From an uncultured Thermotogae bacterium (GTDB lineage: Bacteria > Bipolaricaulota > Bipolaricaulia > RBG-16-55-9): a DNA stretch of 64,000 nt. A program made the position numbers and the translations under genes. The DNA lies in contig CAZMNF010000004.1 in the NCBI GenBank assembly GCA_964567595.1, positions 3,744-67,743 on the forward strand, given 5' to 3'. Shown here in pieces: positions 7,182 to 55,228 of this stretch. How positions within the stretch are numbered: position 1 is the first letter of the stretch; each line of letters starts with the position of its first letter. The notes under the pieces were generated by a model. It searched no databases. It was not told the DNA's origin and was given only the letters and a program-made list of their open reading frames with translations.

Positions 7182-7204
7182 AGCCTGCGATCGCGCCCGT
7201 CCCC

Positions 7205-7231
7205 GAGCTGGCCTCAAGAGGCTGCCAGCTC
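7205..7231 (+). terminator. GC-rich hairpin, putative intrinsic terminator after rpsR
   Basis: GAGCTGGC...GCCAGCTC forms an 8-bp perfect stem with a CTC/GAG inner stem. It starts 24 nt after the rpsR stop and has no U-tract (common in high-GC genomes). Confidence 0.45.
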
Positions 7232-11493: not shown

Positions 11494-13755
11494 ATGACCG
11501 CGGATCCCCATCGCCAGGCCCCACCCGTGGCCTCGTTCGTCGAGGAACTTCGAGCGACCCGTGCGTCGTCGATCGCCCACGTCGAGCGATTGCCGGGCCG
11601 CGAAGCCCAGTTCGGCCACCTGGACCCGCCGCTGGCCGAATCGTTGAGCTCGTTCCTCGACGACGGCGGCCTGCGGCTCTACACCCATCAAGCCGACACG
11701 ATCGAGCGGATCCGCAAAGGCCTCCACATCATGGTGACGACTCCCACCGCGTCCGGGAAGACGCTCGGCTTCAACCTGGCCGTGCTGGAAGGGCTGCTCG
11801 CCGATCCCCAGGCGACGGCGTTGTATCTCTACCCGCTCAAGGCGTTGACGCAAGATCAACAGGCCACGCTCGAGGACATGGCTGAATCGCTGGATGCCTC
11901 GTTAGAGCCCCACATCTACGACGGCGACACGCCGCAAGGCCGACGTGCCCGCATTCGTGAGCGCTCCCGCATCGTGCTGACGAACCCGCACGCCCTGCAC
12001 CAATACCTGCCCTGGCACCACAAGTGGCGCCGGTTTTTCAAGAACCTCCGCTACGTCGTGATCGACGAGGCCCATGCCTATCGGGGCGTGTTCGGCGCCA
12101 ACGTGGCGTTGCTGATCCGTCGGCTGCGGCGCATTGCGGCCCGATTCGGTGCCGAGCCGCAGTTCATCCTCTCGTCGGCGACGATGGCCAATCCCCGGGA
12201 GCACGGGCGCAATCTGTTGGGCGTCGACGACGTCGAGGTGATCGCCGACAACGGCGCGCCCGCGGGCGAGAGGACGATGGTCTTCTGGAACACGCTCGGT
12301 CGTCCCGGCTATTCCGCCCACCGGCAGACGAGCGACCTCCTCGCCCAATGCGTCGCATCGGGCTATCAGACGTTGTGTTTCACGGCCTCGCGCCGCATGG
12401 CTGAGCTCATCGCCCGCTGGACCCAAGAGCAGACGGGGCTCGACGGGGCGATCACGGCCTACCGAGCGGGGTACCCCCCTGCGGAACGCCGCGCCATCGA
12501 GCGTGCCCTCAAAAACGGAGAACTGCGCGGTGTGGCGTCCACCAACGCGCTGGAGCTCGGCATCGACATCGGCAGCCTCGACGCCGTTCTCATCGCGGGG
12601 TTTCCGGGGACGATCCTGTCAACATGGCAGATGGCGGGCCGCGCCGGCCGCGGCACGCAAGCCTCGCTCGTGGCGCTGCTCGGCTTTGAGAACCCGCTCG
12701 ATCAGTACTACATGACCCACCCGGACGTCTTCTTCGCCAAGCCGCACGAGCACGCCGTCGCTGACCCCCAAAATCCCCATGTCCTGTTGGGCCACGTCAT
12801 GTGTGCGGCGGCCGAGCTGCCGCTGTCGACCGAGCGAGATTCCGCGTTCTTCGGCGAGGGGTTCCCCGGGGCCATGAAGGCCCTGGAACGCCAGAAGCTC
12901 GTGCAGGGGACGCCGCTCGGCCGCGTCTATCGCGGCACATCGCGGCCCGTGGAGTCCGTCGCGCTGGAGCACCTCAGCGAGCGCGCGGTCCACGTCATCG
13001 CCGACGGCGAGTTGTTGGAGACCCTGGAGCTGCGCCGAGCGTGTGAGGAGGCCCATCCGGGGGCGGTCTTTCTCCACCGCGGCGACACCTACGTCATCGA
13101 GTCGCTAGCGTTGGACGCCGGCACGGCCCACGCCTCGCGACAGGATGTCGACTACTACACCGACACGCTGCGACGGACGGACCTGGCGATCCGACGCGAG
13201 CTCGATCGCTGGACGCGCGACTGGGGGACGCTGCACGTCGGCGAGGTCCAAGCCAGCGAGCAGGTGGTCGGCTACCGAACGCGGCAGTACGATCGAACGC
13301 TCGGCCTGCACGGTCTGGATCTGCCCGAACAGACGTTCGAGACGGTGGCGCTGTGGGTCACGCTGCCTGACGGATTGCGCCAACAGGTGGAAGCTGGCGG
13401 CGGCGATTGGGCCGGCGGACTCCACGCCGCCGAGCACGCGCTCATCGCCATGACCCCCGTCTACGCCATGTGCGATCGCTGGGACATCGGCGGGCTGTCA
13501 ACCCCTCTGCACCCCGACACGGGCGCAAGCACCGTCTTCATCTACGACGGCCATCCGGGCGGCGTGGGCATCTCGGAAAAGACGGCCGATCTGTTCCGCG
13601 AGCTGGCGCAGACAACCTACGAGCTCGTGCGAGACTGTGGCTGCGACGAGGGATGCCCCTCGTGCATCTATTCGCCCAAGTGCGGCAACAACAACGACAC
13701 GCTCGACAAAGCGGCCGCGCTCGTCGTGCTGCGGGCGCTCGCCGGGCAGGACTGA
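11494..13755 (+). CDS. DEAD/DEAH-box helicase with C-terminal DUF1998 zinc domain (MrfA/YprA-like)
   Basis: 753 aa. It has Walker A TPTASGKT, a DEAH box VVIDEAH, a helicase-C motif QMAGRAGRG, and a C-terminal CGCDEGCPSCIYSPKCGNNN four-Cys cluster typical of DUF1998. Confidence 0.8.
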   Translation: MTADPHRQAPPVASFVEELRATRASSIAHVERLPGREAQFGHLDPPLAESLSSFLDDGGLRLYTHQADTIERIRKGLHIMVTTPTASGKTLGFNLAVLEGLLADPQATALYLYPLKALTQDQQATLEDMAESLDASLEPHIYDGDTPQGRRARIRERSRIVLTNPHALHQYLPWHHKWRRFFKNLRYVVIDEAHAYRGVFGANVALLIRRLRRIAARFGAEPQFILSSATMANPREHGRNLLGVDDVEVIADNGAPAGERTMVFWNTLGRPGYSAHRQTSDLLAQCVASGYQTLCFTASRRMAELIARWTQEQTGLDGAITAYRAGYPPAERRAIERALKNGELRGVASTNALELGIDIGSLDAVLIAGFPGTILSTWQMAGRAGRGTQASLVALLGFENPLDQYYMTHPDVFFAKPHEHAVADPQNPHVLLGHVMCAAAELPLSTERDSAFFGEGFPGAMKALERQKLVQGTPLGRVYRGTSRPVESVALEHLSERAVHVIADGELLETLELRRACEEAHPGAVFLHRGDTYVIESLALDAGTAHASRQDVDYYTDTLRRTDLAIRRELDRWTRDWGTLHVGEVQASEQVVGYRTRQYDRTLGLHGLDLPEQTFETVALWVTLPDGLRQQVEAGGGDWAGGLHAAEHALIAMTPVYAMCDRWDIGGLSTPLHPDTGASTVFIYDGHPGGVGISEKTADLFRELAQTTYELVRDCGCDEGCPSCIYSPKCGNNNDTLDKAAALVVLRALAGQD

Positions 13756-19586: not shown

Positions 19587-19625
19587 TCCAGTTGTGCCGA
19601 CATCGCGACGGACACCGCGGCCGTG

Positions 19626-20543
19626 CTAGGTGAACAGCGCCTCCACGAACGCCTCCGCGTCGAAGGGCTGCAGATCCTCCGCCGTCTCGCCCACGCCGAT
19701 CAGCTTGATCGGGACGTCGAGCTCCTGAGCGATGGGCACGATGGCGCCGCCTTTGGCCGTGCCATCGAGCTTGGTGATCACAAGCCCCGTCAGGCTGACG
19801 GCCTCGTTGAACTGTCGAGCCTGCTGGAGGGCGTTCTGGCCGACCGTGCCGTCGAGGACGAGCAGCTTCTCGTCGATCGGGCGGTCGAGCCGCTTCTCCA
19901 CCACCCGATGGATCTTTTTCAGCTCCTCCATGAGGTTCTTTTTCGTCTGCAGGCGCCCGGCCGTGTCGATCAACAACACGTCCGATCCGTTCCGGACCAC
20001 GTAGTCGGCTGCGTCGTACGCGACCGCGCCGGGATCACTGCCGGCGTCGTGCTTGATCAGTCGCGCGCCGACGCGCTCGGACCAGACCTCCAGTTGCTCG
20101 ATGGCCGCGGCGCGGAACGTATCGGCCGCAGCCACGACAATGTCGTCGCGCCCTTCGGCCTGGAAGCGCTGGGCCATCTTGGCGATGCTCGTGGTCTTGC
20201 CGGATCCGTTGACGCCGAGCACGGACACGACTGTCGGTTGCCCGTCGTCCCGGAGAGCCAACGGAGCTTCAAAGCCGCCCAACAGTTCGACGAGCTCGGC
20301 CTTGAGCATGCCGTAGACCGCGTCGGTGTCCTCGGCCCCCTGCTCCTTGACGCGGGCCTTCAGGCCGTCGATGACGCTCATGGCCGCGTCGACACCGAGA
20401 TCGGCCTCAATGAGAATGGCCTCCAGATCCTCCAGCATCTCGTCGTCGACGCGACGTTTCCCGCCGATGACCGAGCTGACCTGATCGGTCAGCGCCTCGT
20501 GCGTCTTCTTGAGTCCCTGCTTGAGACGGTCAAACCAGGCCAT
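19626..20543 (-). CDS. ftsY: signal recognition particle receptor FtsY
   Basis: SRP GTPase motifs are GVNGSGKTTSIAKMA, DTAGR and TKLDGTAKGG. At 305 aa it is a short FtsY lacking the acidic A domain. Confidence 0.9.
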   Translation of the reverse strand: MAWFDRLKQGLKKTHEALTDQVSSVIGGKRRVDDEMLEDLEAILIEADLGVDAAMSVIDGLKARVKEQGAEDTDAVYGMLKAELVELLGGFEAPLALRDDGQPTVVSVLGVNGSGKTTSIAKMAQRFQAEGRDDIVVAAADTFRAAAIEQLEVWSERVGARLIKHDAGSDPGAVAYDAADYVVRNGSDVLLIDTAGRLQTKKNLMEELKKIHRVVEKRLDRPIDEKLLVLDGTVGQNALQQARQFNEAVSLTGLVITKLDGTAKGGAIVPIAQELDVPIKLIGVGETAEDLQPFDAEAFVEALFT

Positions 20544-20602
20544 GGTTGCGAGCCTCCATTGCGATACCCGGGTTGCGAGCGGCCAGACGGATGGAGCGGT
20601 CG

Positions 20603-22318
20603 TTACATGCGCTCCGGTGCGCTCATGCCGATCAGCGCGAGCCCCGTGGCGAGCACGGTCTGCGCGCTTTTCACCAGCGCCAACCGTGCCCCTTCGAGCT
20701 CCGCGTCCTCGCCGAGGACGCGACAGGTGTCGTAGAATTTGTTGACGACCGCGGCCAGGTCGCCCAAATACGCCGCGACCGTGAAGGGATCGTACGTCGC
20801 CGCCGCGTGGTGGACTCTATCAGGGAACTGCTCGATCCACTTGGCGAGAGCGACCTCATTGCGCTCGGTCAATCGCGCGTAGGCAGGCGCGTCCGGGACC
20901 TCGCGATCGGCCTTGCGGAGGACGCCGGCCATGCGGGCGTGCGTATATTGGATGTAGGGCCCGCTCTTGCCCTCGAAGTTGACCACGTCCTCCCAGCGGA
21001 AGTTGATGTCGTGCGTGCGCGAGCGGCTGATCGTGGCGTAGATGACAGCACTTACGCCCACGTCATGGGCGATCTGCTCGCGCTCGGCTTCAGGCAGATC
21101 GGCAACCTTGGCCACGTCCTCAATGATTTCGCGGGTCCGGGCGATCGCCTGTTGTGCCACGTCCTCGAAGAACACGACGCGGCCCTTGCGAGTCGACATG
21201 CGCTGGTCCTCGAAGAGCACGACGCCGAAGGCGACATGAACCAGGCGCTCGGCCCAGTCGTAGCCCATCTTCGCCAAGGCCTCGAAGAACTGCTGGAAGT
21301 GCAGCGATTGGCCCGCGTCGACGACGTAGAGCTTCCAGTCGAACGCGTACTGCTGCTGATGGTAAATGGCAGCACAGAGATCCCGCGTGGCGTAGACCGT
21401 GGCGCCGTCGCGCTTGCGCAACATCAACGGCGGTCGGTCGGCGTCGGTGTCCGCCTCGAGCGGAATGACGATCGCGCCCTCGCTCTCCTGGGCAATGCCC
21501 TCCTCCATTAGGCGATCGATCAGCGGGCTCGCCTGGTCGCGGTAGGCGCTCTCGCCGCGGATCTCTTCGAATTCGATGCCGAGCATGTCGTAGTAGGCGC
21601 GAAACGCCTCGAGGCTCTGCCCGACGAACCATTCCCACAGTTCCGTCGCTTCCGCGTCGCCGGCCTCCAGCTTCTGGAACCAATGGCGGGCCTCGGCCTC
21701 CAGCTCGGGGGTCGTCTCCGCTTCCTCGTGGAACGTCACATAGAGCCGAAAGAGCTCGTAGACGCGATCCGCTTCGACCTGCTCGCGCGAGCCCCAACGC
21801 TTGTAGGCCGCAATCAGCGCGCCGAACTGCTTGCCCCAGTCCCCCAAGTAGTTGACGCCGACGACGTCGTAGCCCAAATGACGGTGGATCAGCTTGAGCG
21901 TGTGCCCGAGCACCGTCGAGCGCAGGTGGCCGACGCTGAACGGCCGGGCGATGTTCGGGGACGAATAGTCGATGACGACCGTCTGGTTCGCGCCCTCGTC
22001 GCTGCCGCCGTAGCGCTCGCCCTCCTTGAGGACGCGACCGACGACGTGGCGCATCAGCTCGCCCCGAGCCACGGTCACGTTCAGATAGGGGCCGGCCGCT
22101 TGCGCATCCCGGATGGGCTCGCCCACGATCGCCTCGGCGAGCTCTTGGGCGATCTCGGCGGGGGCGCGCCGCAGCCGCTGGGCCAAGGCGAAGCACGGCA
22201 GCGCGTAGTCGCCCATGCTGTCGTCGGGCGGCGTCGTCATCAGCCCACGGACGTCCGCGGCCGGCATGTCCAAAACGCCGCCGACGCGCCGGGCGATCTC
22301 GTCAACGAGTGGATTCAT
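20603..22318 (-). CDS. argS: arginyl-tRNA synthetase
   Basis: 571 aa, a class I aaRS with HIGH-like SPNIARPFSVGHLRSTV, an N-terminal Arg_tRNA_synt_N region and a DALR anticodon-binding C-terminus. Confidence 0.9.
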   Translation of the reverse strand: MNPLVDEIARRVGGVLDMPAADVRGLMTTPPDDSMGDYALPCFALAQRLRRAPAEIAQELAEAIVGEPIRDAQAAGPYLNVTVARGELMRHVVGRVLKEGERYGGSDEGANQTVVIDYSSPNIARPFSVGHLRSTVLGHTLKLIHRHLGYDVVGVNYLGDWGKQFGALIAAYKRWGSREQVEADRVYELFRLYVTFHEEAETTPELEAEARHWFQKLEAGDAEATELWEWFVGQSLEAFRAYYDMLGIEFEEIRGESAYRDQASPLIDRLMEEGIAQESEGAIVIPLEADTDADRPPLMLRKRDGATVYATRDLCAAIYHQQQYAFDWKLYVVDAGQSLHFQQFFEALAKMGYDWAERLVHVAFGVVLFEDQRMSTRKGRVVFFEDVAQQAIARTREIIEDVAKVADLPEAEREQIAHDVGVSAVIYATISRSRTHDINFRWEDVVNFEGKSGPYIQYTHARMAGVLRKADREVPDAPAYARLTERNEVALAKWIEQFPDRVHHAAATYDPFTVAAYLGDLAAVVNKFYDTCRVLGEDAELEGARLALVKSAQTVLATGLALIGMSAPERM

Positions 22319-26623: not shown

Positions 26624-26832
26624 CTCGTTGCCGATCGTCAATGATTGGCGACCGCGATCAAGGCAAGGGGGCCCGCGGCACCCCGCTCAGCCAGCGCGTG
26701 GCCCCCATGTCGCTGGCCGAGCCGACGGTGGGAGGCAGCGGCAAGCAGCCAAGCTCCCGCCGAGTATCCTGCCGTCCTGGATCCGGCGCTCAACGGTGAG
26801 TGCCGGACCGAGCGATCTCGGCGGGGGCGCGA

Positions 26833-27897
26833 TCACAACGGCGCCAGGGTGAACACGACGGGATAGAGCCCGCCGGAACGAATGTTGCGCTCCGCCAGGG
26901 GCGTCAGCTCGTTCATAGCAAACAGGGCGCGGCGCAGCGTCTCCGCTCGCGGCGTCAGCAGAACGACGCGGCCGTGCTGCGCCACGACCTGGGCCGCGCC
27001 ATGGAGAAAGCCCGAATACAGCCCCTTGAGATAGCTCGTCTTGCCCATGCGGATGCCGTAGGGCGGATTGGCCACGATCCGCTCCACGGAGGCGTCCAGA
27101 TGTTGGGACAAGGCTCGGGCGTCCAGCTCGCGGAACGCGATCCGCTCCTGCACGCCCGCCGCCTCGGCGTTCCGGCGGGCCCCCTCGAGGAACGACGAAT
27201 CCACGTCGCCGGCGATGACGCGGACGTCTGGCCAGGCTTGGGCCGCCTCGATGGCGATCGTTCCGCCGCCGCAGAACGGATCCAGGAACGTTTCGCCCGG
27301 TTGGAGCTCGGCCAAGCGCAACATCGCGTAGGCCAAGGGGGCTTTCGTGCCCGCGGGGTGGTCAAAGGGGCGGTCGAAGCGCTGCCGGTGGAGCGACTCG
27401 TCAGTGGCCTGCACGCTCAGCTCGCAGCGGACGCCGATGACGTCACAGCGGACGTCGACGTCGTAGTTCTCCAGGTCGACGTCGGTTCCGTACCGGTCCA
27501 CGAGGGCTTGGCCGACGACCTCCTGGAGGTCGATCGAGGTGTAGCTGTGCTCGCCCGAGCGCTGGCCGGTCACGCGGAAGGTGCGCGCCGATGCCATCTC
27601 GGGGATGTCGATCGTTCGGACCGCGTCGCGAATCTCGCGCAGGCCCGACGCGTCCGACGCGACGCGGAACCCGGTGAGAAATCGGGCAACGTGATACGGC
27701 GAGCGGAGCTGGGCGATCCGCGCCTCCGGGGCGTCCGTGTCGACGACCACGCGACCCCGCATCCCCATCTGTTGGTCCTGGACGCGGGCACGGAGCTTTT
27801 CCGTCGCCTCCGCGGCGACGATGTCTTCCAGCCCGGGGTTGGTGGTAAGCAGCCACTCCATGGACCTATCGTAGGGCATGGCCCGCCCGTCGGCCAT
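26833..27897 (-). CDS. THUMP-domain SAM-dependent RNA (guanine-N2) methyltransferase
   Basis: A THUMP-like N-terminal half is followed by the methyltransferase motif I LDPFCGGGTIAIEAA and motif IV IVANPPYG. The start may be an internal ATG (27879 or 27861). Confidence 0.75.
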   Translation of the reverse strand: MADGRAMPYDRSMEWLLTTNPGLEDIVAAEATEKLRARVQDQQMGMRGRVVVDTDAPEARIAQLRSPYHVARFLTGFRVASDASGLREIRDAVRTIDIPEMASARTFRVTGQRSGEHSYTSIDLQEVVGQALVDRYGTDVDLENYDVDVRCDVIGVRCELSVQATDESLHRQRFDRPFDHPAGTKAPLAYAMLRLAELQPGETFLDPFCGGGTIAIEAAQAWPDVRVIAGDVDSSFLEGARRNAEAAGVQERIAFRELDARALSQHLDASVERIVANPPYGIRMGKTSYLKGLYSGFLHGAAQVVAQHGRVVLLTPRAETLRRALFAMNELTPLAERNIRSGGLYPVVFTLAPL

Positions 27898-27983
27898 GTC
27901 GCGCCCTTGCTTGCAAACCGCCGGACCGTCAGGGACGATGGACGAGGCCGCACTTTCGACCCCATCAACTGAGGTGACCCCCG

Positions 27984-31276: not shown

Positions 31277-31315
31277 ACGTCAGCTCGCTCCCCAATGGAC
31301 AGACCCCGTTGATTG

Positions 31316-32179
31316 ATGCTCTGGCTTGTGCTCGCGTTCGGCTCAGCCCTTTTCGAGTCGCTCAAGGACCTGTTCAGCAAGAAGGGACTCCAACAGATCG
31401 ATCCCTACATCGTCGCCTGGGCGATGCCGCTCTACGCCCTTCCCTTTCTGCTGGCGACGTTGCCCGTCATCGAGGTTCCGGAGATCGGCCCCCGCTTCTG
31501 GCCGGCGCTCGCGGGCAGCGGCCTCATGAACGTCGGCGCGGCCGTGTTGTTCATGAAAGCCATTCAGCGGTCAGATCTCTCAGTTACTGTGCCGCTCGTG
31601 ACGTTTACGCCCATCTTTCTGCTCGCCACCTCGCCGATCATGGTGGGCGAATTCCCGCGCCCGCTCGGGCTGGCGGGCGTCGTGCTGATCGTGCTCGGCT
31701 CCTACGCGCTGCACCTGCGCGAATGGCGCAACGGCATCCTTGCGCCGTTTCGCGCCCTCTTGGCCGACCGCGGGCCGCAACTGATGCTCTTGGCCGCGTT
31801 GCTGTGGAGCGTCACGGCCAACTTCGACAAGATCGCGATCCAGGCCTCCTCGCCGCGCTTCTACGCCGTGGCGGTGATCGCGTTCGTGGCGACGGCGCTG
31901 GGCCCGATCGCGATCTGGCGCAGCCAGGGCCAGGCCCGTGTCGTTGTCACGCGCTGGCGGGCGTTATTGCCGGTGGGCTTCTTCGTCGCGCTGACGCTGA
32001 GCGTGCAGTTCACGGCGATCAGCCTGGCGCTGGTCGCCTACGTGATCGCCATTAAGCGCCTCAGCACGGTGCTCTCCGTGCTCTGGGGGCACCTCGTCTT
32101 CGGCGAGCGCGGCGTGGGCGAGCGGGCGCTCGGCGCGGGCGTGATGGTGGTTGGGGTGTTTCTGATTGCGGTGTCGTGA
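31316..32179 (+). CDS. EamA-family (DMT superfamily) transporter
   Basis: ~287 aa with 10 predicted TM helices and two EamA repeats. It ends with ...GVFLIAVS*. Its last 83 bp are duplicated at 33150..33232. Confidence 0.8.
   Translation: MLWLVLAFGSALFESLKDLFSKKGLQQIDPYIVAWAMPLYALPFLLATLPVIEVPEIGPRFWPALAGSGLMNVGAAVLFMKAIQRSDLSVTVPLVTFTPIFLLATSPIMVGEFPRPLGLAGVVLIVLGSYALHLREWRNGILAPFRALLADRGPQLMLLAALLWSVTANFDKIAIQASSPRFYAVAVIAFVATALGPIAIWRSQGQARVVVTRWRALLPVGFFVALTLSVQFTAISLALVAYVIAIKRLSTVLSVLWGHLVFGERGVGERALGAGVMVVGVFLIAVS
32097..32179. repeat. direct repeat copy 1 (83 bp, perfect), the native 3' end of the EamA gene
   Basis: Identical to 33150..33232. Degenerate similarity (4-6 mismatches) continues ~35 bp further upstream (32064-32096 versus 33117-33149). 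Identity stops exactly at the TGA. Confidence 0.85.
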
Positions 32180-32227
32180 TCACGACACCGCTCGAAATTC
32201 CGTCCTGTGCCGCCTCGCGACTGGAGA

Positions 32228-32255
32228 TTGACAAGGTCGAGGAAGGCGTTATGCT
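32228..32255 (+). promoter_or_regulatory. candidate promoter for the AbrB-type antitoxin operon (TTGACA-N16-TATGCT)
   Basis: A perfect -35 TTGACA at 32228-32233 and -10 TATGCT at 32250-32255. The transcript would begin at the start of the 105-nt repeated element. Confidence 0.4.
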
Positions 32256-32271
32256 GTTCCTAGACTAGGAA

Positions 32272-32380
32272 TTTACTGATCACCGCGAAAGACGGGTTAA
32301 GCGATGACCGCGACGTAGGCGCTAGCGGACATGGCGTCACTCGACTCATGCAGTGGTCAATAGTAATCACGGGGGCCTAC
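32272..32380 (+). repeat. ~105-nt repeated intergenic element, copy A (5' leader of the antitoxin gene)
   Basis: tactgatcaccgcgaaagacgggttaagcgatgaccgcgacgtaggcg...catgcagtggtcaatagtaatcac aligns at ~75% identity with 41828..41938 in the same orientation. It contains the 8-bp palindrome CGCTAGCG. Confidence 0.6.
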
Positions 32381-32381
32381 G

Positions 32382-32675
32382 ATGCCGATCGTCAAGATCA
32401 CCCGAAACCGCCAAGTCACGATCCCGAAGGAACTCTTTGAACAACTGGATCTCCACCAGGGGGCCTACGTCGAAATCTCGCGCGACGGCGATCAACTGAT
32501 CTTGCGGCCCAAGGAGCTGATCGACCGTCAACGTGAGGATGCGAAGCAAGCGTTCTTTGAGACCGTCGATCGTATCTGGGAACGCAACCGCGATGTCGAT
32601 CCCGAACGGATCGAACGGGAAGTCGAGAAGGCCCTCGATGAGGTACGCGATCGCGGGTCCGCGGACTCAGACTGA
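32382..32675 (+). CDS. AbrB/MazE/SpoVT-type antitoxin (swapped-hairpin DNA-binding domain)
   Basis: 97 aa with the N-terminus MPIVKITRNRQVTIPKELFEQLDLHQGAYVEI, a classic AbrB-N looped-hinge motif, and an acidic C-terminal tail. RBS GGGGGC. Confidence 0.75.
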   Translation: MPIVKITRNRQVTIPKELFEQLDLHQGAYVEISRDGDQLILRPKELIDRQREDAKQAFFETVDRIWERNRDVDPERIEREVEKALDEVRDRGSADSD

Positions 32676-32687
32676 CGCGGCAATCCG

Positions 32688-33116
32688 ATGGTCCGCGTCG
32701 TTCTCGACACGAACGTCCTCGTCAGCGCAACGATTTCTCCTGAAGGGGCATCAGCCCGCATCCTGCAAGTTTGGCGTGACGGTGACATTGAACTCGCGAC
32801 ATCGTTCCCCTTGCTGAGCGAGTTCAAAACCGTCCTCTCGCGTCCGCGCATCCAGAAGCATCAGTGGATGAGGACCGACGAGATCGACGCGCTACAGAAT
32901 GACCTACAGGATGCAGCGATCGTGGGGTCCGGCGAGCGGCTCGTCACCGTCATTGAGGATGATCCCGACGACGACTGGGTCCTCAACGCCGCGCTCGAAA
33001 CCGACGCAGACTTGATCATCAGCGGCGATCCACATCTCACCGACCTCCATCAATACGAAGGAATCGACATCCTCACCCCGACTGAGTTCATGGGACGTTT
33101 GGAGACTTCCGAATGA
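32688..33116 (+). CDS. PIN-domain toxin (VapC-like ribonuclease)
   Basis: 142 aa beginning VVLDTNVLVSA (first PIN Asp), with later conserved acidic residues (…EDDPDDDWVLNAAL…ISGD). It sits 12 nt after the antitoxin stop. Confidence 0.75.
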   Translation: MVRVVLDTNVLVSATISPEGASARILQVWRDGDIELATSFPLLSEFKTVLSRPRIQKHQWMRTDEIDALQNDLQDAAIVGSGERLVTVIEDDPDDDWVLNAALETDADLIISGDPHLTDLHQYEGIDILTPTEFMGRLETSE

Positions 33117-33149
33117 GCATGTTGCTGAGCGTCCTCTGAGGGCATCTCA

Positions 33150-33232
33150 TCTTCGGCGAGCGCGGCGTGGGCGAGCGGGCGCTCGGCGCGGGCGTGATGG
33201 TGGTTGGGGTGTTTCTGATTGCGGTGTCGTGA
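33150..33232. repeat. direct repeat copy 2 (83 bp, perfect), a displaced/pseudo 3' end of the EamA gene
   Basis: In frame it would read SMLLSVL*GHLIFGERGVGERALGAGVMVVGVFLIAVS*, a diverged, stop-interrupted copy of the EamA C-terminus. It begins immediately at the PIN gene stop. Confidence 0.85.
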
Positions 33233-33339: not shown

Positions 33340-34275
33340 AAGTAAGAGCACCTAACAAAACCGGGGGATGAGATGCTACGGTGGTCCCACGATGGCGAAG
33401 CCGTTACTGCCGGACGAGCTGTGGGCGGAGATCGAGCCGTTGCTGCCGCCGGAACCGCCAAAGCCGAAGGGCGGACGGCCGCGCATTTCGGATCGGGCGG
33501 CGCTGACCGGTATGCTGTTCGTGCTCAGAAGCGGGATCGCTTGGGAGCTGCTGCCCCAGGAGATGGGATGTGGCTCCGGGATGACCTGCTGGCGACGGCT
33601 ACAGGAATGGCACCAAGCTGGGGTGTGGGACGACCTCGTTCAGCTGTTGCAGCGCCGCCTGGGCGAGGCGGATCGGATCGATGGGAGCCGGGCATCGTTG
33701 GACGCCCAGAGCGTACCTGCTCCAAAAGGGGGCGAAAACCGGGCCGAACCCGACCGACCGCGGCAAGCGAGGCACGAAACACCACCTCCTCGTCGACCAC
33801 CACGGCCTCCCGCTCGGGGTGACGAGCTCCGGGGCGAACGTGCATGACTCCCGGATGCTGGAGGCGATCCTGGACGTCGTGACGCCTATCAAGAAACCGC
33901 GTCGCGGACGGCCTCGTAAGCGACCGAAGAAGCTGCATGCGGACAAAGCGTATGACGCGGAATCCTGCCGACGTGCCTGTGGCCATCGTGGCATTGTTCC
34001 CCGGATTGCGTGGCGTGGGGTCGAGATTTCCGCGAGACTCGGCCAACATCGCTGGATGGTGGAGCGGACCTTTGCTTGGCTCAACCGCTACCGGCGACTG
34101 CGGGTGCGGGATGAGCGACGGGCTGACATCCATGAAGCGTTCCTCAACCTGGGCTCGGCGCTCGTGTTGTTCAACCGGGTCCAAGAGTTCTGTTAGATGC
34201 TCTTAGCTTCGTGACGCTAGCTGAAAACAGAGTCATCGCTCCTTGACACCACTATCCCCCTTGATAAGCTGAATC
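33340..34275 (+). mobile_element. IS5-family (IS427/IS1031-group-like) insertion sequence; boundaries approximate
   Basis: It contains a two-ORF DDE transposase. The candidate imperfect terminal IRs are caaaaccgggggatgag (left) and ctatcccccttga (right). Possible TAA target duplication (cacctaa|...|taagctg). The ends were not rigorously determined. Confidence 0.4.
33392..34196 (+). CDS. IS5-family DDE transposase, split into orfA/orfB by a +1 frame change (programmed frameshift or indel)
   Basis: orfA is MAKPLLPDELWAEIEPLLPP...GRPRISDRAALTGMLFVLRSGIAWELLP (HTH). orfB is ...GTKHHLLVDHHGLPLGVTSSGANVHDSRML...HADKAYDAESCRRAC...MVERTFAWLNRYRRL (DDE_Tnp_1). The frames overlap around the CCAAAAGGGGGCG run at ~33722-33734, with orfB +1 relative to orfA. 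Confidence 0.75.
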
Positions 34276-34338
34276 GGAATCGTTTGCTCCGTCCTTATGC
34301 GCACGGACCGATTCTCACGATCGAAGGGAGGCAATGCC

Positions 34339-34608
34339 GTGGCCACCAAGAAGGTTGAACTCCACCTCCCCGAAGGCCTGTTCGACGCTCTGGGCGGTGA
34401 GAAAGACGCAGAACGGAAAGCCCTCCAGGCCTTACTGCTCTCCCTCATCCAAGAGGGGGAAGTCACCGCCTCATACGCGGCGGAAGTGCTCGGCATCAGC
34501 TATCACCAGATGTTGGATATCATGGCCGAGCACAACGTTGCGCTGGTCAACTACAGCCCGGACGAACTCGCAGAGGAGATTGAAAACCTGAACAAGCTTC
34601 TCGATTGA
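34339..34608 (+). CDS. UPF0175-family antitoxin-like protein
   Basis: GTG start 7 nt after AAGGGAGG, giving (M)ATKKVELHLPEGLFDALGGEKDAERKALQALLLSLIQEGEVTASYAAEVLGISYHQMLDIMAEHNV.... The family is usually paired with DUF3368 PIN-like toxins. Confidence 0.65.
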   Translation: MATKKVELHLPEGLFDALGGEKDAERKALQALLLSLIQEGEVTASYAAEVLGISYHQMLDIMAEHNVALVNYSPDELAEEIENLNKLLD

Positions 34609-35123
34609 GCCCACCTATGGTTGTGGTGTCCGACGCAAGCCCGCTCGTTATCCTGTCCAAGATCGGACACTTCACTCTGCTGAGGGAACTCTTCGCTGAG
34701 ATTCAACTCCCGGAAGCCATCGATGACGAGGTCACCCAAGCGGGCTCGGGCCAACCGGGCAGCCAAGATCTTGCCGATGCCCGCAGCGTTTGGGTAACGG
34801 TGCATCCCACTCCGCTCCCCGAACCGCGTGAACGGCTCAGACAACATCAGGGCCTAAGCCAACAGGATACCTCGGTCATCGTTCTCGCGGAGGCATTGGC
34901 GGCCGATCTTATTCTCGTGGACGAACGTCCCCTGCGAAGGACGGCTCGTGCCAAAGGGTTCACGGTGACCGGCGTCGGCGGGATTCTCCATCGGGCGAAA
35001 CGGGAGAACCTTGTCGCGAGCCTGCATGAGCCGCTCGATCACGCGATCGCCGAAGGCCTTTATCTCTCCGATCCCCTCCGAGACTATCTGTTGCAGCTCG
35101 CTGGAGAAACAGACCAGGACTGA
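34605..35123 (+). CDS. DUF3368 (PIN-like) toxin-type nuclease domain protein
   Basis: ATGA overlap with the upstream gene. The N-terminus MVVVSDASPLVILSKIGHFTLLRELFAEIQLPEAIDDEV matches DUF3368/COG2405 (172 aa). Confidence 0.7.
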   Translation: MSPPMVVVSDASPLVILSKIGHFTLLRELFAEIQLPEAIDDEVTQAGSGQPGSQDLADARSVWVTVHPTPLPEPRERLRQHQGLSQQDTSVIVLAEALAADLILVDERPLRRTARAKGFTVTGVGGILHRAKRENLVASLHEPLDHAIAEGLYLSDPLRDYLLQLAGETDQD

Positions 35124-35124: not shown

Positions 35125-36333
35125 CTACGCCCCCAACGCCCGATCCAAATCCGCCATCAGGTCCTCGGGATCTTCGATCCCCACCGAAAGTCGGATCAGC
35201 CCGTCGGTGATCCCCTTCGCCTCGCGCTCGGCCTTCGGCGTGATGTAGTTCGTCGTCGAGGCCGGATGCGTGACCAGCGTCTTGACGTCGCCGAGGCTGA
35301 CGGCCTGCGTGCAGATCTCGACGTTGTCGATCAGATCCACGCCCGCTTGATAGCCGCCCTTCAATTCAAAACTCACCATGCCGCCGTAGCCGCCCTTCAT
35401 CTGGCGGCGAGCGGTCTGATGGCCGGGATGGTCGGTCAGCGCCGGATGGAAGACGCGAGCCACCTTCGGGCGATTGTCCAGATGGAAGGCGATCTGCTGG
35501 GCGCCCTCGTTGTGCCGGGCCATGCGGAGCCCGAGCGTCCGGATCCCGCGCAGCGTCAGCCAAGCCGTCATGGGGCTCATGACCCCGCCCAGGTCGCGAT
35601 GCAAGCTCCGAATGTTGTCGACGAGATCGCGACGGCCCATGATCGCCCCGCCGAGCGTGTCACCGTGGCCCGAGAGGTACTTCGTCGTCGCGTGCAGCGC
35701 TAAGTCGATGCCGAGGCTGAGCGGTTGTTGGTTGTAGGGCGTGGCGAAGGTATTGTCGATCATCGTCCAGAGGTCGTGCGCCTGGGCCAGGTCGGCCACC
35801 GCCGCGATGTCGGTGATCTCCAGCGTCGGGTTGCTCGGCGTCTCAATGTAGACGAGCTTCGTCTCGGGGCGAATCGCCTCGGCAACGTTGTCAACGTGGG
35901 TCGGATCGACGAACGTCGTCTCGATCCCCAGTTCCGGCATCTTCCCGTTCAGAAAATGCATCGTGCCGGAGTAGAGCTGGTGCCCCGCCACGACGTGGTC
36001 GCCCTGGCTCAGGGCGGCCATCAGGGACGTCGTGATGGCCGCCATGCCGCTGGAGGTCGCGATGGCGGCTTCGGCCCCTTCGAGCGTCGCCAGCTTGGCC
36101 TCCAGAGCCTCCACCGTCGGGTTGCCCCAGCGGGAGTAGAGATAGACCCCGCGCTCGCCCGACTGGATCCCCTCGGTGACGCGCGCGGTCTCGTCGGACG
36201 AGCCGGGCGCGAACGTGCTGGTCTGATAGATCGGCACGTCGACCGAGCCCGTCGTCGGATCGACGGCCTCGCCGGCGTGGACGGCGTCGGTGTCGAAGCC
36301 CGTCTCGGAGCGCTGATCCGCCCGGTCGGTCAT
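35125..36333 (-). CDS. cystathionine gamma-synthase/gamma-lyase family PLP enzyme (Cys/Met metabolism)
   Basis: 402 aa carrying the PLP-lysine region ATKYLSGHGDTLGGAI and the family motif YSRWGNPT. Its stop lies 1 nt from the DUF3368 stop on the opposite strand. Confidence 0.85.
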   Translation of the reverse strand: MTDRADQRSETGFDTDAVHAGEAVDPTTGSVDVPIYQTSTFAPGSSDETARVTEGIQSGERGVYLYSRWGNPTVEALEAKLATLEGAEAAIATSSGMAAITTSLMAALSQGDHVVAGHQLYSGTMHFLNGKMPELGIETTFVDPTHVDNVAEAIRPETKLVYIETPSNPTLEITDIAAVADLAQAHDLWTMIDNTFATPYNQQPLSLGIDLALHATTKYLSGHGDTLGGAIMGRRDLVDNIRSLHRDLGGVMSPMTAWLTLRGIRTLGLRMARHNEGAQQIAFHLDNRPKVARVFHPALTDHPGHQTARRQMKGGYGGMVSFELKGGYQAGVDLIDNVEICTQAVSLGDVKTLVTHPASTTNYITPKAEREAKGITDGLIRLSVGIEDPEDLMADLDRALGA

Positions 36334-45599: not shown

Positions 45600-46661
45600 A
45601 TGACGCAACGAGTTGAAGTTGGCATTCTTGGCGCAACGGGAACCGTGGGGCAGCGCTTCGTCCAGCTGCTGGACGGCCACCCATGGTTTGAGATCAGCGC
45701 TCTGGCCGCCTCCGAGCGCTCGGCCGGGCAGCGCTACGCCGACGCCTGTGCCTGGAAGTTGCCGACGCCCATGCCGGAGGGCGCTCGAGACCTCGTCGTC
45801 TCGGAGCCGACGCCCGACGCCATCGACGCCCCCGTCGTCTTCTCGGGGCTGACGAGCGATGCGGCGACGTCCGTCGAGCCGGCTTTCGCGGAGGCGAGCC
45901 ATGCCGTCATCAGCAACGCCAGCTCCTTCCGCATGGCGCCCGATGTGCCGCTGTTGATCCCGGAAATCAACGCCGATCACGTTGACCTGATCGAGACGCA
46001 ACGCCGGACCCGCGGCTGGCCCGGTTTCATCGTGACGAACCCGAACTGTTCCACGATCGCGCTCTGCCTCGCGCTAGCGCCCTTGGAGGATCAGTTCGGC
46101 ATCGAGCAGGTCGTGGCAACGACCCTGCAAGCCATCTCCGGCGCCGGATATCCGGGCCTGCCCTCGCTCGACATTATGGGAAACGTTCTCCCGAACATTC
46201 CGAAAGAAGAGACAAAGATGGAGAGCGAGACCCGCAAAATTTTCGGCCAGCTCGCGGGAGATCAATTGGAAGCACACGAGATGGCCTTGAGCGTCACCAC
46301 AACCCGCGTTCCCGTCGTCGAGGGTCACACGGAGAGCGCCTCGATCGGGATGGCAGAACAGCCCGCCATGGAGGACGTCCGGTCCGCGCTCCATGCGTAC
46401 CGATCGTTGCCGCAGAAGCAGGACTTGCCGAGTGCCCCGTGTCGACCTGTCGTTGTCACGGACGATCCCGATCGCCCACAGCCCCGCTTGGACAACGACC
46501 TCGAAGCCGGGATGGCGACCGTGGTCGGGCGACTTCGGCCCTGCCCGGTGCTCGGGGTCAAGCTGGTGCTGCTGGGCCACAACACCCTGCGCGGCGCCGC
46601 CGGCGCGTCGGTGCTCAACGCCGAACTGCTGCACGCGCAAGGAGTTCTGCCTCCCTCATGA
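45600..46661 (+). CDS. asd: aspartate-semialdehyde dehydrogenase
   Basis: The N-terminus VGILGATGTVGQRFVQLL is a Rossmann fold. The catalytic Cys region is NPNCSTIAL, and HTESA provides the active-site His. Start is ATG 45600, although the ORF track offers TTG 45579. Confidence 0.9.
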   Translation: MTQRVEVGILGATGTVGQRFVQLLDGHPWFEISALAASERSAGQRYADACAWKLPTPMPEGARDLVVSEPTPDAIDAPVVFSGLTSDAATSVEPAFAEASHAVISNASSFRMAPDVPLLIPEINADHVDLIETQRRTRGWPGFIVTNPNCSTIALCLALAPLEDQFGIEQVVATTLQAISGAGYPGLPSLDIMGNVLPNIPKEETKMESETRKIFGQLAGDQLEAHEMALSVTTTRVPVVEGHTESASIGMAEQPAMEDVRSALHAYRSLPQKQDLPSAPCRPVVVTDDPDRPQPRLDNDLEAGMATVVGRLRPCPVLGVKLVLLGHNTLRGAAGASVLNAELLHAQGVLPPS

Positions 46662-48058
46662 TCGTCATGAAGTTCGGCGGCACCTCCGTCGGCGGGGCGG
46701 CCGCCATGGAGGCCGCCATGCGGGCCGTCGAGTCCCGTCGGGATCGCCAGCCGGTCGTCGTGGCATCGGCGATGCGCGGCGTGACGGACGCGCTCAGCGC
46801 TTGCGCCGACGCCGCCCAGCGTGGGGACGAGAGCGGCGCCGTCGGCCATTTGGACAAGCTCGCCGAGCGCCACCGGACCGCCGCCCGCCAGCTGCTCGAC
46901 GACGGCGAGGCGCTGACGGAGCTCCAATCGTGGCTGGCATCCCAGTTCGAAGAGATGCGGACGCTCCTGAAAGGGTTGGCCATCCTGGGCGAACTCACGC
47001 CCCGCTCGCTCGACGCGCTGCTGGCCTACGGCGAACGCCTCTCGACGCGGATCCTCCAGGCAGCCATGACCGAGCGCGGGCTGGCGGCCCGGTGGATCGA
47101 CGCCCGCGAGGTCGTCGTGACCGATCGCCACTTCGGACAGGCAACGCCGCTCGTGGCCGAGAGCCGCGAGCGGGCTGAGCGGCTGCGAGCGGCGGCAGAG
47201 GCGGGACAGATTCCCGTGACTCAGGGCTTTGTTGGCGCCACAACCGACGGAACGACCGCGACGCTCGGGCGCGGCGGCTCCGACTACTCCGCCGCGCTTT
47301 TGGCCCAGGTGTGCGACGCTGACGAGATCGAGATCTGGACGGACGTCAAGGGGGTCATGACGGCCGATCCCAGCGTCGTGCCGGAGGCCCATCCCGTGCC
47401 GGAGCTGTCCTATGCCGAGGCCGCCGAGCTGGCCTACTTCGGCGCCAAGGTGCTCCATCCGCTGACGGTCGCCCCGGCCGTGGAAGCGAACATTCCGCTC
47501 GCCATTCTGAACACCTTCGAGCCGGAATCCCCGGGCACGCGCGTCGTTCGTGACGCCCGTTACGACGATCACGCCGTGAAAGCGATCACGGCGATCCACG
47601 GGCTCAGCCTGGTGACCATCGCCGGTCGCGGCATGCTCGGCATCCCGGGCGTGGCGGCACGCGTCTTCTCCGCGGTGGCTGAGGAGGGGATCAACGTGCT
47701 GATGATCTCGCAAGCGTCGTCGGAGCAGAGCATCTGTTTCTTGGTCGACTCGACCGACGCCGACCGCGCCATCGAAGCCCTCCAATCGGCGTTTGAGCGC
47801 GAGCGCCATCGCCACACAGTCGATCGCATCGACGCCCAGGCCGAGGTGGCGATCCTGGCGGTCGTCGGCGCCGGCATGAAGGGAACGCCGGGCATCGCCG
47901 GGAAGCTCTTCGGGGCGCTCGGCGCCCATGGCATTAACGTCGTCTCCATCGCTCAAGGGTCGTCGGAGTACAACCTCTCGGTCGTCGTCGCCGAGGGCGA
48001 CGCGGACGGCGCGATGCGCCAGATCCACCGCGAGTTCAACTTGGGGGAGGGGAAATGA
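46658..48058 (+). CDS. lysC: aspartate kinase
   Basis: ATGA overlap with asd. The N-terminus MIVMKFGGTSVG is the AA-kinase fold, and C-terminal tandem ACT domains (…ISQASSEQSICFLV…, …IAQGSSEYNLSVVV…) follow. The ORF-track start at 46439 is an extension. Confidence 0.85.
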   Translation: MIVMKFGGTSVGGAAAMEAAMRAVESRRDRQPVVVASAMRGVTDALSACADAAQRGDESGAVGHLDKLAERHRTAARQLLDDGEALTELQSWLASQFEEMRTLLKGLAILGELTPRSLDALLAYGERLSTRILQAAMTERGLAARWIDAREVVVTDRHFGQATPLVAESRERAERLRAAAEAGQIPVTQGFVGATTDGTTATLGRGGSDYSAALLAQVCDADEIEIWTDVKGVMTADPSVVPEAHPVPELSYAEAAELAYFGAKVLHPLTVAPAVEANIPLAILNTFEPESPGTRVVRDARYDDHAVKAITAIHGLSLVTIAGRGMLGIPGVAARVFSAVAEEGINVLMISQASSEQSICFLVDSTDADRAIEALQSAFERERHRHTVDRIDAQAEVAILAVVGAGMKGTPGIAGKLFGALGAHGINVVSIAQGSSEYNLSVVVAEGDADGAMRQIHREFNLGEGK

Positions 48059-53786: not shown

Positions 53787-55226
53787 ATGGAGCCGGGGCA
53801 CAATGGACATATGGGGCTCCTTGAGCGAGTCGAGGCGACGCTGCGCCGCGAAGAGATGTTGGCCGGCGGCGAGCGCGTGCTCGTCGCGGTGTCGGGCGGC
53901 GTCGACTCCATGACGCTTTTGCATGGGCTGCGCGAGCTGGCGACGAAGTGGGACCTGACGCTCGGCGTCGCGCATCTGGACCATCAATTGCGTGCCGACT
54001 CCGCCGAGGATGCGCGCTTCGTCCGGGACCACGCTCGGTCGCTCGGGTTGCCCGTGTTCGAGGATGCCGCCGACGTTGCGGGCTACATCGCCCGTCACGG
54101 CCTCTCGCCGGAGGCCGGGGCCCGCGAGCTGCGCTACGAGGCCCTGCGCGAGGCAGCAAGCGCGTTTCGGGCGCCGATCGTTGCGCTCGGGCACACGCTC
54201 GACGACCGCGCGGAGACGTTCGTCCTCAACCTTCTGCGAGGATCCGGCGTCGATGGCCTCGCCGGGATGCCCGCGACTCGATCGACGTGTGATCTACGTT
54301 ACGTTCGGCCCTTAATTGACTGTTTCCGTGAGCAGATCGAGACGTACGCTAAGACGAACCGCATCCCCTACCGCGAGGATCCGAGCAACCGCGATCCGCG
54401 CTACGAACGCAATCGGGTGCGTCACGAGCTGATGCCGTTGTTGGAGACGTTCAATCCGAGCGTCCGCGACGCCGTGGCCCGGGCCAGCGATGCGCTGACC
54501 GACGTGAGCGACTACCTCAACGACGAAGCCGACAAGCTTCTGCAGCGCGCTTACGTCCAATCCGACGGCGTGGGCTGTGCCTGGGACGCTCGGACGCTGC
54601 GCCGGGCGCAACGAGCGCTGCAACGCCAAGCGCTCCGGCAGGCGATCCGTCGGGTTAAGACCGACCTGGACGGCATCACCGCGGACCACCTCGAGGCCGT
54701 GTCCGGCTTGCTCCGCGAGGCCCGCTCGGGCCGATCCGTGGCGTTGCCCGATGCTCTGAATGCCCGATATCAAGCAGACCGCTTGGTCATCGAGCGCGCC
54801 GCCCCGACCGAAGCCCCGATGGCCCGCATTGAGGTCCCGCTCTCTCGGGACGGCACGACCGACGTCCCGCAGCTCGGCTGGCGGTTGGCCGTGGACACGA
54901 TGCGCGGCTCGCATCCGCACCCGTCGGGGCGGTTGGAAGCGCGACTCGATGCCGATACAATGGTCGGACCGCTCGCCGTGCGCAACAGACGAGCCGGCGA
55001 TCGCATTCGACCGCTTGGACTGGGAGGCACAAAGAAGTTGCAGGATATTTTCGTCGACGCCAAAACCCCTCGACACCATCGCGATCAGGTGCCCTTGATT
55101 TGCGATCAGCAAGGCATCCTCTGGGTTCCCGGCCACTGCATTGACGATCGCGGCCAGGTCACGCCGGCCACCCGACGGACCGTGCGGATCCGGGCCGAAC
55201 GCATGACTCCGCAGGAGGCGCGCTGA
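53787..55226 (+). CDS. tilS: tRNA(Ile)-lysidine synthetase
   Basis: The PP-loop SGGVDS lies in VLVAVSGGVDSMTLL. A substrate-binding middle domain and a C-terminal TilS_C region follow. The start may be the internal ATG 53811. Confidence 0.85.
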   Translation: MEPGHNGHMGLLERVEATLRREEMLAGGERVLVAVSGGVDSMTLLHGLRELATKWDLTLGVAHLDHQLRADSAEDARFVRDHARSLGLPVFEDAADVAGYIARHGLSPEAGARELRYEALREAASAFRAPIVALGHTLDDRAETFVLNLLRGSGVDGLAGMPATRSTCDLRYVRPLIDCFREQIETYAKTNRIPYREDPSNRDPRYERNRVRHELMPLLETFNPSVRDAVARASDALTDVSDYLNDEADKLLQRAYVQSDGVGCAWDARTLRRAQRALQRQALRQAIRRVKTDLDGITADHLEAVSGLLREARSGRSVALPDALNARYQADRLVIERAAPTEAPMARIEVPLSRDGTTDVPQLGWRLAVDTMRGSHPHPSGRLEARLDADTMVGPLAVRNRRAGDRIRPLGLGGTKKLQDIFVDAKTPRHHRDQVPLICDQQGILWVPGHCIDDRGQVTPATRRTVRIRAERMTPQEAR

Positions 55227-55228
55227 TC

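Follow-up and report, generated by a model that had tools for sequence, protein, structure and literature searches.

How toxin-antitoxin (TA) modules integrate into chromosomes is still called unclear (PMC13617665, Belot et al. 2026). Here, we describe a TA cassette located in a 64,000-nucleotide stretch of contig CAZMNF010000004.1 (assembly GCA_964567595.1; the whole stretch is termed the window) that belongs to a Candidatus Bipolaricaulia clade. The cassette lies between an intact EamA/DMT-family transporter gene and a displaced pseudo-copy of the 3' end of that same gene. The locus preserves a readable scar of acquisition in the form of this displaced 3' end, and equal scars in relatives, which involve other TA families and another host gene, support a route that employs neither integrase nor transposase. 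The signature is searchable, as the last TA stop codon is immediately followed by a pseudo-3' fragment derived from the co-oriented gene upstream.

Among the closest described systems is the insertion-duplication that follows from one-sided homology. In E. coli, a selection for such integration returned mostly single-crossover products in which the end of the homologous locus was duplicated (PMC3240628, Amarir-Bouhram et al. 2011). The same paper also cites homology-facilitated illegitimate recombination (HFIR) in S. pneumoniae, A. baylyi, and P. stutzeri. The Bipolaricaulia locus resembles these cases in that foreign DNA lies beside a homologous anchor, the anchor is directly duplicated, and no dedicated recombinase is involved. 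The experimental duplications span 109-950 bp, whereas those of the Bipolaricaulia locus measure ~92-130 nt. Moreover, the Bipolaricaulia event is natural and ancient, took place in an uncultured host, brought in a TA operon as cargo, and was followed by homogenization of the repeat.

A second parallel concerns the type VI secretion system (T6SS) effector-immunity arrays of V. cholerae and Rhs orphans, for which displacement by homology-anchored insertion has been proposed (PMC5361080, Kirchberger et al. 2017). In T6SS arrays and in Rhs or contact-dependent inhibition (CDI) orphans, as at the locus described here, cargo sits behind a conserved anchor, and the old 3' fragment is shifted downstream together with older cargo. 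A further likeness is the formation of an array with anchor remnants, which then spreads by flanking homologous recombination. However, the Bipolaricaulia anchor is a housekeeping or transport gene (EamA or metB) rather than a toxin gene, the cargo consists of type II TA pairs, and the displaced fragment codes for nothing useful. Our search of the literature on TA insertions accompanied by a truncated copy of the upstream gene retrieved nothing specific, and we found no earlier description of what appears to be a variant of displacement with a housekeeping-gene anchor and TA cargo.

Elements that reside at the 3' ends of genes form a third group, which includes the integrase-less cis-mobilizable elements (CIMEs) of streptococci and the islands in tRNA and tmRNA genes. 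The classic cases of 3'-end targeting are e14 and phage 21 in icd, along with tRNA-gene islands. Elements such as e14, phage 21, and the CIMEs share with the EamA locus an intact target, the element itself, a direct pseudo-3' end, and empty sites in relatives. In contrast to them, the EamA locus carries no integrase, its repeats are not conserved across lineages, its boundaries vary, and its payload amounts to ~0.94 kb.

Two further systems combine small TA modules with repeats. In Microcystis aeruginosa, a ParE/ParD-like pair follows MaOC1 and is associated with 152-bp intergenic direct repeats (PMC7935541). Both there and at the EamA locus, a type II pair lies 3' of a host gene with identical direct repeats of ~100-150 bp. 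The M. aeruginosa repeats are intergenic and contain internal inverted repeats, whereas those at EamA represent a coding 3' end. Integron cassettes are alike in being small, promoter-bearing TA cassettes arranged in arrays, with a ~100-nt repeat after each cassette and the older ones in distal positions. Unlike in integrons, the repeat at EamA is a gene fragment and lacks an attC-like imperfect palindrome, and neither an integron integrase nor attI was seen at the locus.

Duplication of the EamA 3' end around a toxin-antitoxin cassette

The last 83 nt of the transporter gene (32097-32179) recur exactly at 33150-33232, and the identity cannot be extended by a single base at either end. Across the window, this is the sole direct repeat of at least 40 nt with a spacing within 6 kb. 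Upstream of the exact block, 25/34 positions remain identical between 32096 and 33149 leftward (32063-32096 versus 33116-33149; 9 mismatches). Copy 1 corresponds to the functional terminal 117 nt of EamA on the plus strand (32063-32179), which end with the stop codon at 32177-32179 and leave the gene intact. Copy 2 is the displaced pseudo-3' end (33116-33232, plus strand), made up of a diverged part (33116-33149) and the exact block (33150-33232). Its first base is the final base of the stop codon of the PIN toxin gene, and an in-frame TGA at 33137-33139 stands where copy 1 has TGG. The flanks 3' of the two copies are unlike except for 'CA' at +2/+3. A previous inspection of the bare letters (the sequence-only reading) had reported the 83-nt duplication, the degenerate homology that starts at the PIN stop, the stop-interrupted pseudo-C-terminus, and the lack of a common downstream flank, and all of these were reproduced. 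Its statement that the payload is a TA pair with a leader and no integrase also stands, and it is the duplication that keeps EamA intact.

The EamA gene itself occupies 31313-32179 on the plus strand (Pfam EamA, 5.9e-27), and the likely start codon, an ATG at 31316, yields a protein of 287 aa. Its orthologs have the same length of 287 aa and are 90-91% identical. An exact database look-up with both candidate starts of the window protein returned no record; P0130 in the EamA protein cluster is the same protein.

A perfect 24-nt palindrome with a 10-bp stem, GCGGTGTCGTGA|TCACGACACCGC, is centered on the EamA stop codon (32168-32191, no strand assigned). Half of it comes from EamA (final 12 nt) and half from the insert (initial 12 nt). 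Among the related loci described below, it is weaker in L020 and L023 and missing from the empty sites and from L036. The palindrome could be a terminator-like hairpin or a remnant of the joining event. When folded against shuffled controls, copy 1 reaches z = -4, which is owed solely to this palindrome, and copy 2 shows no excess folding (z = 0.06 and -0.26 on the two strands).

As a separate observation on the host gene, synonymous divergence within the last 114 nt of functional EamA (32066-32179 and its orthologs) is 0.14-0.26 in five of six comparisons and 0.41 against L038, an estimate that covers only ~32 synonymous sites. Over the first 450 nt, the same six comparisons give higher values of 0.39-0.87. 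The low divergence at the 3' end could reflect constraint, or else conversion or recombination.

The payload between the copies (32180-33115, 936 bp) comprises a promoter-like site, an AbrB/MazE antitoxin gene, and a PIN toxin gene. A Pfam domain search of the payload detected only AbrB and PIN, and no recombinase gene is encoded. The promoter-like site reads TTGACA-16-TATGCT on the plus strand (32228-32255, within a feature that extends over 32228-32271) and matches 10/12 consensus positions, with one such site found versus 0.5 expected. It is followed on the same strand by a 15-nt palindrome, TTCCTAGaCTAGGAA (32257-32271), a candidate antitoxin operator. The counterpart in L020 keeps the TTGACA box, has the -10 hexamer TAAGCT instead of TATGCT, and contains an imperfect palindrome, TTCCTAGAATAGGAA. 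The leader from the operator-like palindrome region to the antitoxin start (32276-32381) is ~86 nt longer in the window than in L020 (106 versus 20 nt).

The antitoxin gene comes first and encodes an AbrB/MazE/SpoVT-type protein of 97 aa (32382-32675, plus strand; PF04014, 6.4e-13; TIGR01439). After a gap of 12 nt follows the co-oriented gene of a 142-aa PIN-domain toxin (32688-33116, plus strand; PIN_3/TIGR00305, by Pfam and TIGR00305 profiles). The scores exceed the curated cut-offs given in brackets: 48.9 bits for PF04014 (24.7), 71.6 for PF13470 (27), and 59 for TIGR00305 (29). The acidic residues D7, E45, D94/D95, and D114 of the toxin are invariant across 13 homologs; from general knowledge of PIN domains, we take them to be the catalytic site. 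Both genes are under purifying selection (dN/dS against L020: antitoxin ~0.11, toxin ~0.26). By domain content, gene order, residues, and selection, the cassette is predicted to be an ordinary AbrB/MazE-PIN (VapBC-like) type II TA module. Its composition departs from that of the neighboring core genes, with a GC content of 58% versus 65% and a third-codon-position GC (GC3) of ~0.71 versus ~0.89; individually, the inserted genes range from 0.65 to 0.75. A blastn comparison of the payload with the PLSDB plasmids produced no match.

Occurrence of the architecture in related loci

Eight informative related loci were recovered through a species-level genome collection, the EamA protein cluster, and PIN homologs. 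The nearest genome in the collection is the Candidatus Bipolaricaulia metagenome-assembled genome (MAG) L007, at 84-91% nucleotide identity. In L007 and L037, the gap between EamA and a convergent metB-like gene is empty (18 bp and 69 bp, respectively), and EamA is intact. Against these sites, in which EamA is followed within 18-69 bp by the metB-like gene, the cassette is an insertion, as the sequence-only reading had anticipated. In L022, the gap contains a 1.1-kb AT-rich insert with a weak HEPN-like open reading frame (ORF) and no repeat.

The AbrB/PIN cassette with its flanking repeat also occurs in relatives. L020 and L039 carry the same cassette and the identical junction between PIN stop and pseudo-EamA, CCGAATGAGCA, followed by a 427-aa ORF and an orphan BrnT-partner gene. 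In L023 (JGI 3300028615, 2420-3540), the same cassette and the CCGAATGAGCA junction are present, and the pseudo-copy has a 15-nt deletion. That the duplicated arrangement is ancestral in relatives, which the sequence-only reading had named as a ground against its own interpretation, holds in part: L020, L039, and L023 do carry it, but empty sites exist as well.

Different cargo occupies equivalent brackets in two other loci. L036 (ENA ERZ23491536 scaffold_92, 6865-7856) harbors a UPF0175/DUF3368 pair between EamA and a pseudo-EamA fragment, which starts 130 nt rather than 117 nt ahead of the stop and has a 30-nt internal deletion. L038 (Logan SRR12601634, 1883-2673) presents a mirror image on the other strand, in which the metB stop is followed by 25 nt, a BrnT gene, a 100-aa partner gene, and a pseudo-metB 3' end. 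This fragment is 92 nt long and 83% identical and begins inside the stop codon of the partner gene; no EamA repeat is found at the EamA/metB gap of L038. The EamA/metB gap is hence a hotspot, a variable spot that gathers TA cassettes in this Candidatus Bipolaricaulia clade.

Distant PIN homologs with 56-61% identity (L025 and L029) reside in unrelated contexts without duplications of host-gene 3' ends, and the architecture is therefore not general to this PIN family. Among JGI metagenome contigs, an exact 27-nt pattern from the EamA 3' end had no matches, and a protein-guided EamA scan yielded relatives at no more than 51% identity.

In L023, a side observation concerns the fate of the host gene: feoAB and all of EamA except its last 58 nt are deleted and the cassette is retained, such that the TA pair has outlived its host gene.

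Age of the arrangement and homogenization of the repeat

The AbrB/PIN cassette and its pseudo-EamA fragment are old, as the same junction is shared by lineages ~0.4 synonymous substitutions per site apart. In the downstream core genes (3.5 kb compared), L007 and L022 share 88-90% identity with the window, and L020 shares 82%. Synonymous divergence (dS) between the window and L020 amounts to 0.34 for AbrB, 0.65 for PIN, 0.41 for EamA, and 0.41 for metB. The values of the TA genes are similar to those of EamA and metB, and the cassette has therefore diverged together with its host. The dS values lend no support to the idea that the window lineage recently acquired the cassette by lateral transfer. 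Since the junction is common to the window, L020, L039, and L023, the structure either predates the split of these lineages or was exchanged anciently through flanking recombination. EamA itself is mildly mosaic, with a dS at codon-alignment positions 451-747 of 0.17 against L020 and 0.27-0.38 against the other lineages.

In the diverged lineages, the two repeat copies are only 79-83% identical and have acquired stop codons and deletions of 15 and 30 nt. In L020, 92/117 positions agree (79%), the mismatches are spread throughout (9 in the first 34 nt and 16 in the last 83), and the pseudo-copy has an in-frame TAG. The pseudo-copy thus decays as non-coding DNA and is not kept as a recombination site. 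Given that these lineages hold the same junction with decaying repeats, the perfect identity must be recent and specific to the window strain. The sequence-only reading had taken the 83-nt block for attL/attR of a recent site-specific integration, which is at odds with repeats that are 79-83% identical and decaying in lineages at dS 0.34-0.65.

The 83-nt block is instead a recent, strain-specific homogenization (concerted evolution), brought about by a gene-conversion tract or by an equivalent excision and re-entry. Three observations carry this conclusion. First, the 9 mismatches are all confined to the first 34 of 117 positions (P = 6e-6 under random placement), and the probability of 83 identical positions is below 2e-4 at a divergence of at least 10%. 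Second, both window copies have a T at 32152/33205, where the functional copies of L007, L022, L037, L020, L036, L038, and the L002 strain have a C. Third, L001 and L002, from the same sample set as the window strain and otherwise 99.3% identical to the window, contain a pseudo-copy with 5 differences within 29 nt. The homogenized tract is bounded on the left at 33149/33150 and on the right by the end of homology. Conversion most likely ran from the functional copy onto the pseudo-copy. The case cautions that perfect repeats flanking a small cassette may stem from gene conversion in an old structure and need not indicate that site-specific integration happened recently.

Homologous recombination is evidently frequent at the EamA locus. 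L020 and L039, near-identical 491-kb contigs from different samples, differ by 53 single-nucleotide polymorphisms (SNPs) in 10.8 kb, nearly all of them in tight clusters. These include 33 SNPs in 176 nt of metB (L039 9310-9485), 8 in 70 nt of copy 1, and 15 over the EamA 3' end, leader, and antitoxin (L039 5759-6128). The clusters look like recombination imports from diverged alleles. The C-terminal polymorphism between the corresponding EamA proteins, P0001 and P0128, was also considered as a conversion from pseudo-copy to functional copy. This was rejected because 3/8 changes of the L020/L039 tract are unlike the pseudo-copy and the tract enters the leader and antitoxin; it looks like an allelic import.

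Origin of the duplication

In our judgment, the arrangement probably, though by no means certainly, arose through a homology-anchored insertion, either by single crossover or by HFIR, that displaced the old EamA 3' end, with gene conversion homogenizing the copies later. Incoming DNA that carried an EamA 3' segment and a TA operon would have recombined with the EamA 3' end as the only homology. This could have occurred by HFIR if the molecule was linear or, if it was circular, by a RecA-type single crossover. The non-homologous end of the incoming DNA would join inside the recipient's own EamA 3' end, which would damage neither EamA nor metB. Such an in-gene joint would be among the few harmless outcomes, because EamA and metB are convergent and merely 18-69 bp apart. 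In the product, the cargo would be preceded by a new, intact 3' end and followed by the displaced old one, and an older UPF0175/DUF3368 cargo would be pushed further downstream and later parted from the pseudo-copy by an insertion sequence (IS). No dedicated recombinase would be required. The sequence-only reading had mentioned integration by homologous recombination in passing, as an alternative in brackets, and this is the mechanism favored here.

Several findings agree with such an origin. The order in the window (EamA, AbrB/PIN, pseudo-EamA, the IS, and UPF0175/DUF3368) is the one predicted by displacement. The combination of intact anchor, cargo, and dead fragment in direct orientation recurs in the window, L020, L023, and L036 with EamA and in L038 with metB. 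The lengths of the duplication differ between independent cases, at 117, 130, and ~92 nt. The ragged right border, with lineage-specific metB tails, points to illegitimate joints. Short strings common to the joints, namely AGCA/TGAGCA, and GAGCGC in L038, could reflect microhomology.

Other points weigh against homology-anchored insertion. A donor-type EamA-TA arrangement without a pseudo-copy was not found among the recovered loci, and without a donor sequence the original illegitimate joint cannot be inspected for microhomology. In 3/3 cases, the pseudo-copy begins ~0-15 nt from the stop codon of the last cassette gene. Such tight starts exceed what random illegitimate joining would give, and the model needs later deletional trimming or a defined cassette end. 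The cargo operons also run in the direction of the duplicated host gene in 3/3 cases, which the model does not require; with n=3, chance could explain this. The direction of gene conversion is one that we infer. Furthermore, the species tree is nearly star-like, and loss from an ancestral occupied state can therefore not be cleanly separated from spread by flanking homologous recombination. The evidence base consists of metagenome assemblies throughout.

The tight starts of the pseudo-copies and the co-oriented cargo leave room for another reading, unlikely as we consider it, in which the cassette is mobile without an integrase and the pseudo-3' end serves as its portable homology arm. RecA would pop out a circle of ~1.05 kb (the TA pair plus one repeat). 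The circle would, with similarly limited likelihood, re-enter a naive EamA allele by single crossover and always restore the gene. The perfect block would then record a recent cycle of excision and reintegration and the empty sites precise excisions, which we hold to be equally doubtful. The recurrence of the architecture with three TA families and two host genes, the patchy occupancy over lineages with EamA intact at empty sites, and the abutment of the pseudo-copy on the last stop codon are in keeping with this proposal. So is the perfect identity to the right of a sharp breakpoint, which gene conversion predicts equally, and a 10-nt similarity between the flank of copy 2, GCAACATTCA, and the EamA-downstream flank of the empty site in L007, GCAAACATTA. 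However, the origin of the first copy is left unexplained, the pseudo-copies decay and lose segments with no visible selection for a function as arm, and the divergence of the TA genes equals that of the host, so that recent transfer is not evident. Recombination over ~100 nt at 80% identity would also be very inefficient. If true, the proposal would imply homology-driven entry and exit of selfish TA modules at the 3' ends of core genes, with the recurrent architecture as the footprint.

A site-specific integrative cassette appears improbable. Here, the EamA 3' end would be attB, attP would bring the replacement 3' end, the integrase would be encoded elsewhere or lost, and the repeats would be attL and attR. 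An intact target gene with a displaced 3' fragment is the classic signature of such elements, empty sites exist (L007, 18 bp; L037, 69 bp), the duplication ends at the stop codon (+3 nt), and the other TA cargo in the EamA bracket of L036 can be read as cassette exchange at one site. Nevertheless, the 936-bp payload encodes no recombinase, nor could it accommodate the remnant of one, given that the pseudo-copy directly adjoins the stop codon of the toxin gene. Among 10 compositionally atypical ORFs elsewhere in the window, no recombinase domains were found, and the IS transposase lies outside the bracket. The site has not been maintained: repeat identity is down to 79% in L020, and the repeats show internal deletions of 15 nt (L023) and 30 nt (L036). 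The left boundary is placed differently in the two EamA cases (117 and 130 nt), and the third case is in metB. Copy 2 does not fold above shuffles, with the sole strong hairpin confined to copy 1, and the cassette has co-diverged with the host. The minimal integrase-mobilized cassette or decayed island of the sequence-only reading is disfavored accordingly by variable boundaries (117, 130, and ~92 nt), the missing space for a remnant, and the lack of a common fold.

There is also a slim chance that the duplication arose in situ. In this scenario, the cassette already lay 3' of EamA, unequal exchange or slippage at TGAGCA duplicated the 3' end together with the cassette, and the second cassette was then lost. 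TGAGCA indeed occurs at the PIN stop. The window also has it where copy 2 ends, and L020 and L023 have it where copy 1 ends; copy 1 of the window ends with TGATCA instead. The scenario takes two steps, of which the second must be a precise deletion, and the same events would need to have happened again in L036 and, with metB, in L038. A tandem intermediate was seen in no relative examined.

An assembly artefact in the form of a collapsed or chimeric repeat, which had been named as a possible undoing of the repeat, is excluded. In at least six SRA runs (SRR14300213-226), the Logan assemblies show the same cassette arrangement at 99.3-100% identity. Several Logan contigs stop 30 nt into the repeat, because a true perfect repeat does so in a k=31 graph. 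Contigs L001 and L002 read straight through copy 2, because copy 2 there differs from the window at 5 positions. Together, the independent assemblies with the same arrangement and the repeat-type contig breaks rule out an artefact. The metagenomic source of the data and the EamA proteins that differ solely in the repeat region (P0001 versus P0128, P0122 versus P0123) might raise such a suspicion, but it is extremely improbable given that the arrangement is repeated in independent assemblies, at least six SRA runs, and three diverged lineages, that the break points agree with a true repeat, and that the L020/L039 difference runs past the repeat into the leader and antitoxin as an allelic recombination tract. 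An integron-like attC was rejected, as copy 2 folds no better than shuffles.

Downstream cargo, right border, and further observations

Downstream of the pseudo-EamA copy lies an IS5-family element of 863 bp (33343-34205, plus strand) with 19-nt terminal inverted repeats that match at 17/19 positions. Its transposase is split over two frames, with a DUF4096 part from ~33368 and a DDE part to 34196. The element separates the pseudo-EamA copy from a second TA-like pair, occurs once in the window, and is carried by Logan contig L001 too.

The second pair (34297-35123, plus strand) consists of a UPF0175 antitoxin gene (34297-34608; PF03683, 2.3e-13) and a DUF3368/PIN-like partner gene (34605-35123; PF11848, 4.9e-5, which is under the Pfam cut-off). 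It is 46-55% identical to the UPF0175/DUF3368 pair that fills the EamA bracket of L036, and it ends 1 nt ahead of the stop codon of the convergent gene. This gene (35125-36333, minus strand) encodes a PLP-dependent enzyme of Cys/Met metabolism from the cystathionine gamma-synthase/methionine gamma-lyase family and is termed metB-like. It forms the right border of the variable spot, which spans 2.95 kb from the EamA stop at 32179 to the metB-like stop at 35125. The C-terminal tail of the metB-like protein (35125-35145 in the window, and the orthologs) is unlike in every lineage, with …LDRALGA, …LDGALERGSSL, …LDQALHIAMSENLNHLMI, and …LDGALAS as endings. On its right side, the variable spot appears to encroach on the end of the metB-like gene.

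The relatives display additional cargo at the same spot. In L020, a 427-aa ORF (11934-13217) gives weak matches to AAA/STAND NTPases, and in L022, a 217-aa ORF (6887-7540) gives a weak RiboL-PSP-HEPN match. The EamA/metB spot may thus collect defense-type genes besides TA pairs. Beside metB in L020 lies the orphan partner gene of a BrnT system (13318-13632), which is 85% identical at the nucleotide level to that of L038 and lacks BrnT; ~18 nt of pseudo-metB are left next to it. This looks like TA erosion through loss of the toxin. In L038, an adjoining 80-aa ORF (1646-1888) is a fragment of a YgiT/MqsA-type zinc-finger protein.

Elsewhere in the window, four long ORFs (19623-20735, 26800-27972, 46325-48028, and 55106-56767) without a Pfam match have a GC3 below that of the core genes and may be either spurious or further accessory genes. 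Finally, one of the distant PIN homologs, L025 (ENA ERZ23500020, an unrelated organism), lies in a region (3692-6418) where adjacent MazE/PIN and FitA-like/PIN pairs are flanked on both sides by a 103-nt direct repeat with 89% identity. This repeat belongs to a small family of intergenic repeats and is not a host-gene 3' end, and runs of a 9-nt periodic repeat occur nearby.

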